Below, in pieces: positions 1-3,000 of a stretch of DNA of 30,668 bases. Within the stretch, counting starts at the first letter, position 1. Every line of letters starts with the position of its first letter. Origin of the DNA: a virus (taxonomy: Duplodnaviria > Heunggongvirae > Uroviricota > Caudoviricetes); IMG/VR virus record IMGVR_UViG_3300045988_129107. One strand, written 5' to 3'. The position numbers are program-made.

Positions 1-3000
1 TAAAAAATAGCATCCAACCACAGCACGCTCTTGCTTACGACGTGCTGCGGTTTTATTGATAATTCCGGATTAGATCGTCAATGGAGACATTATTGCCGGA
101 GATAATGGTGGATTCAGCATCCAGAGTAATCCCGGCGACACCGTATCAAAAGGACGGCTCAGATCATTAACACATTTTGTTAACTTGAAATCTGTAACAC
201 TTTCTCCATTCCCCAAACATTGACCATTTCCAATCGACTTGATTTGCACAGCTCCAGTTTCACTGGTTATAAATGTAAATAATGCATTGCGATTGCTTTC
301 AGTGCATTGTTTAGCCACTGCTAATTGCCCATTTAGAATTGCAAGGCATTCATTACCATCAGGGTTTTTTATCTGAACATGCCCCCCCGGTGCCGATATC
401 AAATCCAAATCATTAGTCTTTACTTCTGATATAACCCAATTATTTACATTGAAGTCACGACCTACAGGGTTTCTGAGTATCCCACCAGTAAGAACGTTTC
501 TAATATTAACCAACACAGGTCTGGGTTCAGGATCTCCAGAAGCATTGTTGCCAGCAAACTGAGTGAGAAGCCCTCGTTGATTTACCGCATCAGAAGTACA
601 TCCCGTCAGCAATAAAACCAAAATCGTAATAATTATTCTCATCTTCTAGCTCCTCTTCCGGGAATGAAGCCAACCGGAAAGTGATCAGAGGCAATTTGTC
701 CTCTTAACAACCCAAATAACAGCGAAGCCCTCAACAGGGGAAGCACAAAACTCACTGAGTTTCCAACTACAGCATAATCAAGCACTCCACCACTGGCCTG
801 CGTTGGATCTGGTGGTGCAATAATATTCACGTGATTACGGATTCCCGGCTCAAGTGTTGAAAATAACATAGCAGGTGAACGGTTGAAATCTCCTGCAATC
901 ATCCAGTTAGCGGCCTGTCTTATAGGATCTGTTTGTCTGTTGAAAAACTCAAAAACACTGTTAACAATTGCTCCAGAATCTATACCTCGGTTTGCCAATG
1001 CATGAGTTGAGAAGAAAACATCATTACCTATTCTTATTCCAATGATCGGACGCGATGCCACTGTTGGAGGTGATAATACAATCACCTCATCAGCTCTTCT
1101 GTTAGATACTATCGCTAAATTTACTCTATTAGAAAGAGCATCAGTTCGCGAAAAATAAATAAAAAGCTGCTGTGGACGGCTATTCGTTCCAGTATTCCAG
1201 ATATACTCATTCATTGGGATACCTGGTGTACGAAATTCACGTTCCGTTAGTGTAGCTGAAGATGGTATTGAACCAGCTTCCTGAACCATCAGGATATCAA
1301 CAGCACCACTTCCCGTGACAAGTTGTCGAACATGTGTGTTCCATTTATTTTCTGTCGGTGCATTTGAGCCCTGCAAATTCCAGGTTGCAACTTTAAAGTC
1401 GCTTAAATCTGCAAAAGAAATACCCGGCAAAATCATTAACAGGAATAATAATTTTTTCATACTCCCTCCATTCCATCAGGTTTGTCATGAGGTGGAATTG
1501 GCAATGGTCTGAATGGTCTTAATTCTGGTTTAATCAGATTTGGTTTTGCCGCTCTGACAGGTGGACTTATTGCCCATAGCATTTCTTGCGTTTCTTCTTT
1601 TGCACCAGGACACTTCTCAAGGGTGATTGTAAAAGCAAACGGTGACAGTATAGTTCTGCTTAAATAGTCTGCTCTTATACACGTCTGCAAGGCGCTACTT
1701 CTTATAAGCACATTACCATTAGTAGAAGGCAGTAACTGAAACTCCTGAGATAACGAATTATCATCACAGGTATTATGTATCACCCCGTTTTTAAAGGCCT
1801 CCATGCAAGTCCCCTGGGCAACATTAACAAATTTCACTGTACCGGCATCTTTACCATCCACAACCTTCCAGTTCCGATTCTCTCCAAAACTTACTGAATC
1901 AAACGGAGTATATCCCCAAAGCCAGTTACGGACAGGTCTGGCCCAAACAGTAAGCATCGCTCCCCCTGTGCTCATTATTGAAACATCAGGAAAGTCAGTA
2001 CTGTTGCTCCCAAATGTTGGAGATGTGCCATTTGAAGCAACAGCGACACCTTGCCCTGGAATTCCGACTAATTCTACATTCTTTCCCGGTGGCGAAGGTG
2101 AATCACCGATCCCATCCGAGCAACCAGTAATTATAAGTGTGCACAAAAATGCAATTAGTTTTTTATCCACTATATTTCCTCCTCTGCACCACCTCTTTTT
2201 TATAAAAAAACAGAAACAACAAAGCAACAAAAATATTACTGGTAAGATTAATGAGAAAATGTGAAAGCAGCACAACAAACAAGTTTATTATAACATTCGT
2301 TATTGTTTTTCAGGTTACAAACAGCGAGCTCATATATAATTCTTTATATTCCAAAACACTATGCAACATGACCATAACGTCTGCGGTTCAGTGGAGTTTG
2401 CTCAAACATATTCGCCAGTCTGTTTCATTACGTAATACACCTGTTTAGGTGTATGCATAAGACCAGTCAGGTATAAATAACTATATTGTTTTGCATAAGA
2501 AGTTGGTTGCATAATCACCAGTTAATATAAACTCCATTATTTCTCCACATTTTCATGTTAGAAGTTGCAAAGAGAAACATGATGTTTCTCTTTGAGATAA
2601 TTAATCATTCCTGTTGCCCACCTCACTGGTGGGCTTTTTTATGTAAAACCAGCCCCTGCCATGTTCCCCTGACATGATGACGTTAGCGATTAACCAACAG
2701 CCAGATCAGCAGACACGCCACCACCGGCACAGCAAAATCCATCATGCTTGCCATATCCCATGCACGTGGATCAAAACCGCCCCACCACGGCATGTTAATC
2801 CGCTTGCCATGCCCGAACATTCCAATCCAGCGATATTCTGCCTGGGTATGTTCACGCGCAATGAAGAACGTACAACCGGCTATCGCTCCGTAAGCCCAGT
2901 TCCCGGTAAAAAGACCAACCAGTACCTGCGCAGCCACAGCACAAAGCGCGTGAAGGAAAGGTGTTATATCCATTACTCCTCCTTTATCCAATATCGCTTC

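Follow-up and report, generated by a model that had tools for sequence, protein, structure and literature searches.

Hfq-associated small RNAs (sRNAs) of pathogenic Escherichia coli, among them PasA-D, AgvB, AsxR, Esr41 and DicF, are encoded between genes of lambdoid prophages, are about 80 to 240 nt long and end in a terminator with an Hfq-binding U-tract. A locus of similar design was found in IMG/VR virus record IMGVR_UViG_3300045988_129107 (Caudoviricetes), a stretch of 30,668 nt that was analysed as a whole (the window, to which all positions refer unless a genome is named). Here a palindrome and a U-tailed hairpin lie between the toxin operon cdtABC and the last gene of the tail module. 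The two hairpins are probably (we estimate a probability of about 0.6) the internal stem-loop and the terminator of a plus-strand gene for an Hfq-type sRNA of approximately 105 to 140 nt, a prophage-borne paralogue of a chromosomal gene. The element resembles the sRNAs named above in being intergenic in a lambdoid prophage, but it has no sequence or covariance-model similarity to any of them and occupies a cargo position after the tail-fibre genes. Esr41, AgvB and AsxR have Rfam families, none of which matched; for PasB (prophage PP6, 1466261-1466343) the probe sequence is unrelated. Catalogues of sRNAs from enterohaemorrhagic E. coli (EHEC) cannot contain the element, since the corresponding locus of O157 Sakai is of the K-12 type, which has no terminator. 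The element is best filed as an unnamed addition to the class of prophage-associated Hfq-type sRNAs, one with a widespread chromosomal paralogue.

The chromosomal gene lies upstream of yagU, a neighbourhood already known for an sRNA. EcsR2 is encoded in the yagU-ykgJ spacer, on the other side of yagU, and was present in 66 of 66 E. coli genomes examined (Raghavan et al. 2015, PMC4350180). Like EcsR2 and other sRNAs made or broken by rearrangement, the element appears to have been made or broken in this way, but it is not EcsR2, as it lies on the opposite side of yagU and has a different sequence. The position in the prophage also has precedents. In phage lambda, lom and bor are cargo that follows the tail-fibre genes. 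In phage 21 the 'moron' cargo is sitABCD, and the small membrane-protein gene that closes the tail module ahead of this exchangeable cargo is the same as in the window, where the cargo would consist of an RNA gene, a yagU stub and cdtABC.

The inverted repeat at 2568-2594 is CAAAGAGAAACAT-G-ATGTTTCTCTTTG, with perfect 13-nt arms (2568-2580 and 2582-2594) and a total length of 27 bp. Both hairpins are where the original prediction, made from the sequence alone, had placed them, although the 10-nt arms described there (2571-2580 and 2582-2591) are only the inner part of longer ones. This matters for the claim that the palindrome is unlikely by chance. Among 200 dinucleotide-preserving shuffles of the 30.7-kb window, 31 contained a perfect hairpin whose arms measured 10 nt or more and whose loop did not exceed 5 nt, so the size first reported is not rare; arms of 13 nt or more occurred in only one of the 200, and it is the true size that is remarkable. 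The palindrome is the largest perfect hairpin of its kind in the window, which contains no second copy of the 21-mer within 3 mismatches. The second largest, TTTATCTCTG-T-CAGAGATAAA with 10-nt arms, is at 16364-16384, in the gap between a 1,077-aa open reading frame (ORF; 12867-16100) and an ORF at 16572-17033.

The second hairpin, GCCCACC-TCACT-GGTGGGC at 2616-2634 followed by TTTTTT at 2635-2640, begins 24 nt (rather than the 25 nt first counted) beyond the 10-nt arm, or 21 nt (2595-2615) beyond the 13-nt arm. An intrinsic terminator was defined as a G+C-rich stem of at least 5 bp with a loop of 3 to 8 nt and a U-rich tract directly after it on the transcribed strand; with a 7-bp stem containing six G-C pairs, a 5-nt loop and T6, 2616-2640 is a Rho-independent terminator on the plus strand and the sole strong site of this sort on that strand within 1400-3800. 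On the minus strand the stem is followed by AACAGGAATGATT and there is no U-tract, hence the terminator is unidirectional. As had been pointed out, it faces the plus direction although every credible gene nearby (cdtA and the gene for the small membrane protein) is encoded on the minus strand.

Homologues of the element were collected from an E. coli genome set, viral contigs, GTDB representative genomes and metagenomes, and form three types. Type A, the cdt-prophage type, was found in 65 complete genomes, all of which have the cdtA-proximal upstream segment; type B is the yagU-locus type; type C comprises a divergent Escherichia genome (L020), in which homology stops at 2650 just past the terminator and an integrase remnant follows, and a metagenome contig (L080). 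The types differ by about 20% outside the terminator, A and B being approximately 80% identical throughout and 92% identical at the terminator. No base of the terminator stem or T-run differs among types A, B and C, whose loops are TCACT, TTAAT and CTAGT, respectively. The prophage copy can be told from the yagU-locus copy by loop TCACT together with GAAACATGATG, as against loop TTAAT together with GAAATGTAATG. There are no indels between types in 2500-2640, although both flanks have them, and the block 2534-2546 is identical in all three. The palindrome is perfect in type A only, where a common variant, C2578T, changes one pair to U·G. In type B the outer 3 bp are lost and the ten inner pairs are kept only with three of them as G·U or U·G on the plus strand.

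Among 2.9 million viral contigs the pattern of the element was found in cdt prophages only, and searches of 50,697 phage genomes found it in none; the intergenic segment 2574-2686 is likewise absent from all 50,697 deposited phage genomes searched. A scan of genome contigs for wider taxonomic spread returned two Escherichia-type loci and chance matches, but as an exact-pattern search it could miss diverged homologues. On the minus strand, a mini-ORF (2537-2481) preceded by a strong Shine-Dalgarno sequence (GGAGAAATAATG) encodes 8 or 9 aa in yagU-locus, type C and K-12-type sequences (MELILIGD, MEFILSGD and MMVLIFIGD, each followed by a stop); in the window copy the stop is lost and the product is 18 aa. 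As the mini-ORF is the reverse complement of the invariant, seed-like block, conservation there could belong to either strand.

Plus-strand RNA from 2536-2642 (107 nt) was predicted to form a stem-loop, then the palindrome stem (12 bp), an unpaired A/U-rich linker of 21 nt and the terminator (-33.2 kcal/mol, z = -5.4 against shuffles). The type B homologue folds similarly (z = -3.1). The predicted folds contain the parts of an Hfq-binding module, namely a terminator with a 3' U-tail and an A/U-rich single-stranded stretch upstream; the linker (2595-2615) is placed like the Hfq-binding stretch ahead of sRNA terminators, is 81 to 95% identical between types and contains the invariant AATCATTCCT. 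The RNAalifold consensus of 12 distinct variants contains the palindrome stem, the terminator and, ahead of them, a weak stem-loop on the 5' side. RNA of the minus strand folds well, too (155 nt, z = -4.1), because any palindrome must. However, five one-sided stem substitutions between or within types give G·U, U·G or U-A pairs in plus-strand RNA but would leave A·C mismatches in RNA of the minus strand, and the inner 8 to 10 bp of the palindrome stay paired in homologues on the plus strand only, through G·U. This support for strand-specific pairing is statistically modest, about 1 in 16 to 1 in 32 if transitions are treated as coin flips.

A homologue of the element is bound by Hfq in enteropathogenic E. 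coli (EPEC) E2348/69. In the supplementary tables of a RIL-seq study (Hfq co-immunoprecipitation, ligation and sequencing), it is listed for the minus strand of NC_011601 as 'yagU.E2348C_0240.IGR' (Pearl Mizrahi et al. 2021, PMC8550237). It was recovered in 36 chimeric fragments with SroC, as the second RNA (RNA2, p = 4.7e-9), with read ends between 273220 and 273198, and in 902 other Hfq fragments as RNA2; its longest U-tract is 6 (PMC8550237). The three partners are SroC (an sRNA), one coding sequence (CDS) or 5' untranslated region (UTR) and one RNA from an intergenic region (IGR). Fragment counts were 50 under the activating condition, where the fraction as RNA2 was 1.0, and 12 under the non-activating one (PMC8550237). 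In E2348/69 the plus strand encodes yagU (273430-274044), so the RNA is transcribed divergently from that gene; its strand corresponds to the plus strand of the window. Checked against the genome, 273198-273220 on the minus strand is CCACCTTAATGGTGGGCTTTTTT, the 3' half of the terminator plus U6, and a second listed region, 273231-273336 on the same strand, corresponds approximately to window 2500-2605 and contains the conserved 5' block and the palindrome homologue.

The EPEC RNA and the window copy are approximately 80% identical across the RNA region, diverge from yagU in the same way at the same distance from its start, and have the same order of parts: the CCAUUAUUUCUCC block, the stem-loop, the A/U linker, the GCCCACC/GGUGGGC terminator and U6. 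They differ in that the EPEC copy is at a chromosomal yagU locus beside a degraded prophage, has the loop TTAAT and forms an imperfect stem-loop (8 to 10 bp with G·U pairs and, in E2348/69, one A·C), whereas the window copy, part of a cdt-IV prophage, forms a perfect stem of 13 bp and has the yagU stub and cdtABC on its flank. From these alignments the window copy is probably a paralogue, about 81% identical, of an RNA gene that roughly one in four E. coli genomes has upstream of yagU, beside thrW. The anatomy, the homology and the strand-specific conservation are established, as are Hfq binding and a terminator-defined 3' end in the EPEC homologue; for the window copy we infer transcription, the position of the promoter and action by base-pairing.

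Transcription of the proposed gene would start somewhere in 2500-2537, proceed rightwards, away from the yagU remnant and cdtABC, and stop at the U-tract 2635-2640, approximately 40 nt before the stop codon of the convergent last tail gene. The RNA would have the layout of an Hfq-dependent base-pairing sRNA, which begins with conserved C/U-rich sequence at the 5' end and continues with a stable stem-loop, a linker rich in A and U and a U-tailed terminator. Hfq would be bound via the U-tail and the A/U linker and targets paired through single-stranded regions, the invariant block at 2534-2546 being the candidate seed. By eye, two weak candidate promoters can be picked out, one with -35 TTGGTT (2503-2508), a 17-nt spacer and -10 TATAAA (2526-2531), the other at about 2488-2497. 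A start near 2500 fits the left edge of the EPEC read region (273336) and would be back to back with a yagU-sense promoter-like site in E2348/69. In duplex energy, pairing with the start regions of cdtA, cdtB, cdtC, the yagU remnant and the membrane gene did not surpass that of shuffled RNA; on these grounds base-pairing was rejected as a means of regulating cdt, and nothing ties the RNA functionally to the toxin. A plus-strand small protein was also rejected, as the ORF at 2555-2677 reads through the terminator and its start or stop is lost in types B and C. The literature searched on yagU with sRNA or Hfq yielded no named RNA for this locus.

The region around the element is a mosaic junction, as had been suspected. 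The yagU-upstream-like block (Table 1) is 78 to 81% identical to the yagU upstream region adjoining thrW and an integrase remnant, a match seen with 1,299 of the 5,426 complete E. coli genomes, Nissle 1917 and EPEC E2348/69 among them. At its left end the stub (2410-2361, minus strand) matches the start of YagU (MNIFEQTPPSRRRYGLAAF...), and the BLAST alignment begins about 55 nt inside the annotated yagU CDS (in L004, position 3351 against CDS 2791-3405). Judged from this alignment, the junction with cdt-specific DNA is at 2361/2362, approximately 200 bp left of the palindrome. As the position of yagU is that of cdtABC here, the toxin operon replaced yagU, leaving its first 50 nt or so; yagU would thus be the cargo after the tail genes in homologous loci, and the RNA gene would have been retained through the replacement. 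The right end of the block contains the last 137 nt of the membrane-protein gene, which at yagU loci is a truncated remnant. Deposited lambda-like phages such as phage 21 have this gene in common only from 2687 rightwards, and in phage 21 the convergent sitABCD follows it, which indicates an exchangeable cargo position. Metagenome contig OGWR01023312.1 (1,729 nt; L075) has a genuine yagU 5' end, the yagU-locus element, a full-length membrane gene and a gene with a tail-fibre domain. It looks like an intact tail module abutting yagU, though it could be an assembly chimera.

Other loci contain only part of this arrangement. The inducible phage cdtI is homologous over 2101-2499 only, keeping the yagU stub and about 90 bp upstream of it and lacking both hairpins. 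Loci of K-12, O157 Sakai and the BEC1 type (with the pao operon, or paoA, as neighbour) share 2361 to approximately 2573-2580 only (L006 3355-3574; O157 Sakai, L095, ~39980-40400), ending inside the left arm, and have no terminator. The 5' part with the seed-like block is also present in these K-12-type loci; as they keep the 5' half and lack the terminator, a rearrangement either made or broke the RNA gene. One conceivable history, which we consider rather doubtful, is that the gene was assembled by rearrangement, with its 5' part from the core yagU upstream region and its terminator half from the end of a lambdoid prophage integrated at thrW, that a phage then captured it along with the beginning of yagU, and that cdtABC later replaced yagU. 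The chromosome of avian pathogenic E. coli (APEC) O1 has two places matching the element, the prophage copy of the window and one elsewhere, whose type and location can be presumed from the pattern in other genomes. In E. coli ChlosBP-23-1, a cdt-I variant, a frameshifted fragment of a tail-fibre-assembly gene is annotated between cdtA and the yagU-like block (L002 3878-4005), so the cdt upstream region has been rearranged more than once. In other cdt prophages (L011 type) a 13-nt deletion takes out the ATG of the stub. A perfect 8-bp hairpin at 2435-2454, ATACACCT-GTTT-AGGTGTAT, lies 25 to 45 nt upstream of the stub's start codon, has one mismatch in yagU-locus types and may be part of the yagU 5' leader or promoter.

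Several observations weigh against an sRNA gene. A consensus scan found no plus-strand sigma-70 promoter between 1764 and 3751, the candidates picked by eye are weak and the -10 lacks its final T in the yagU-locus type. No Rfam 15 family reached its gathering threshold over the whole window, nor did E-value mode over 2150-2750 give any; the best sub-threshold scores (thresholds in parentheses) were RAGATH-7 25.9 (111.8), JA04 23.9 (81), DapZ 23.6 (56), isrD 20.7 (37) and MicA 19.8 (41). Identity in the RNA region (~80%) is no higher than in the adjoining pseudogene remnants. The 12 variants include three pair-breaking changes, all rare singletons, and no double compensatory substitution in any stem, so structural selection is suggested, not proven. 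The EPEC RNA is of low abundance and has three partners only; it has no entry in Table S6 of the RIL-seq study, whose authors did not call it an sRNA (PMC8550237). Some of these points would equally suit a real terminator without a functional RNA, either a one-way stop that halts stray transcripts coming out of the yagU/cdt promoter region and shields the convergent tail operon from antisense transcription or the leftover of a lost plus-strand cargo gene, with the palindrome incidental. Convergent cargo does follow the same membrane gene in lambdoid phages (sitABCD in phage 21), and the lack of a good promoter, conservation no better than that of the flanks and the few EPEC partners all agree with it. 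We nevertheless regard this explanation as unlikely: three diverged types agree in the spacing between yagU and the terminator, which leaves no space for a gene, and in each base of the terminator stem, the palindrome stem is maintained on the plus strand via G·U, and the EPEC transcript is bound by Hfq and, as is typical of an sRNA, takes only the second position in its chimeras under the activating condition.

It is highly unlikely that the hairpins act instead on the minus strand, as 3'-UTR structures of the tail operon that cause partial termination or protect against 3' exonucleases upstream of the cargo. They are directly downstream of the last late gene and the stems form equally well in minus-strand RNA (the 155-nt fold given above). 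Yet neither has a U-tract on that strand, three stem positions of the yagU-locus type turn into A·C mismatches there, the Hfq-bound EPEC reads are from the opposite strand, and the element is also found at loci with a truncated upstream phage gene or none (type C, with homology ending at 2650). Lambdoid late transcription, as in phage lambda, is Q-antiterminated. An insulator of cdt from late transcription, one of the roles proposed in the original prediction, is unsupported, as late transcription uses the minus strand and no U-tract follows the hairpin there. Little credence, finally, can be given to a function of the palindrome in DNA, whether it would bind a dimeric regulator of the yagU/cdt promoter region or mark a hotspot or junction of recombination. 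A perfect 27-bp palindrome is rare by chance and the K-12-type loci lose homology inside its left arm, so that a breakpoint coincides with it. This is the only such case, the other breakpoints being at 2361/2362 on the cdt side, 2499 for cdtI and 2687 for the phage backbone; the cdt junction is 200 bp away, and no thrW-derived repeat, which would indicate an att site, lies near the element. A repressor site, as had been suggested, is not consistent with the homologues, in which two-fold symmetry is lost: types B and C have asymmetric substitutions, and in the yagU-locus type three stem positions are asymmetric in DNA and paired, as G·U, only in plus-strand RNA. Nor does the palindrome fit a scar of toxin acquisition, since it and the terminator are found upstream of intact yagU without cdt in approximately 1,300 genomes and are absent from phage cdtI. 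It did not recur at other cargo junctions in the viral-contig scans and phage-genome searches, being found only in cdt prophages or at yagU loci. The conservation expected among cdt phages was indeed seen, in 65 of 65 complete genomes with this cdt upstream arrangement, but the conserved unit is the putative RNA gene module and not a mark of the junction.

Over 2280-2700 (421 bases) the window is 100% identical to the chromosome of E. coli APEC O1, and it matches the cdt-IV prophage of that strain. The RefSeq annotation of APEC O1 was converted to window coordinates to give the gene map (Table 1); both hairpins lie inside the 512-bp gap from cdtA to the last tail-module gene. Further into the tail genes, 3979-6360 (minus strand) is a single uninterrupted tail-fibre ORF of 793 aa with internal repeats (SETNAK-type; DNA repeats at about 5383-5820), whereas its APEC O1 counterpart is annotated in RefSeq as two pseudogene fragments and a short 'phage tail protein'.

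Table 1. Coordinates of the putative RNA gene, the yagU-like block and neighbouring genes in the window
Feature	Position	Strand	Remarks
cdtC, type IV	70-642	-	RefSeq APEC O1
cdtB, type IV	639-1460	-	RefSeq APEC O1
cdtA, type IV, first gene of cdtABC	1457-2170	-	RefSeq APEC O1; in the cargo position that yagU holds in homologous loci
yagU-upstream-like block, 459 bp	2361-2819		order: yagU remnant, yagU 5' region, putative RNA gene, 3' end of membrane gene
yagU-like 5' remnant, 16-codon stub	2361-2410	-	ATG at 2410; MFEQTPLNRRRYGHVA, then stop; left edge is the junction with cdt-specific DNA
Proposed RNA, 5' part	2500-2567	+	holds invariant C/U-rich block CCATTATTTCTCC (2534-2546) and a weak stem-loop; two candidate starts
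Palindrome, proposed internal stem-loop (12-13 bp stem)	2568-2594	+	from shuffles, folds and pairing kept in homologues
A/U-rich single-stranded linker, GAGATAATTAATCATTCCTGT	2595-2615	+	unpaired in minimum-free-energy and consensus folds
Rho-independent terminator	2616-2640	+	stem invariant in types A, B and C; loops differ
Small hypothetical membrane protein, 96 aa, phrog_1443 (function unknown), last tail-module gene	2683-2973	-	RefSeq APEC O1
Tail-fibre-domain protein with Peptidase_S74 chaperone domain	2984-3688	-	further tail genes beyond

The cdt junction is redrawn by these comparisons: the toxin operon is in the position of yagU and retains a yagU stub, which illustrates the reuse of a cargo position and gives work on the cdt promoter an exact boundary. 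Provided that the RNA is made, a regulatory RNA missing from the annotation accompanies the toxin operon in cdt-I and cdt-IV prophages, and approximately a quarter of E. coli, including Nissle 1917, EPEC E2348/69 and many extraintestinal pathogenic (ExPEC) and APEC strains, carry a chromosomal relative for which Hfq binding is on record but which has neither a name nor an Rfam family. APEC O1 would then have both copies, given the type presumed for its second one. Should the gene have been captured by phage as outlined above, the toxin prophage would bring its host a second, diverged copy of an RNA from the host's own Hfq network, one that in EPEC pairs with the sponge RNA SroC, and this copy could link carriage of the toxin phage to the regulation of amino acids and the envelope in the host.

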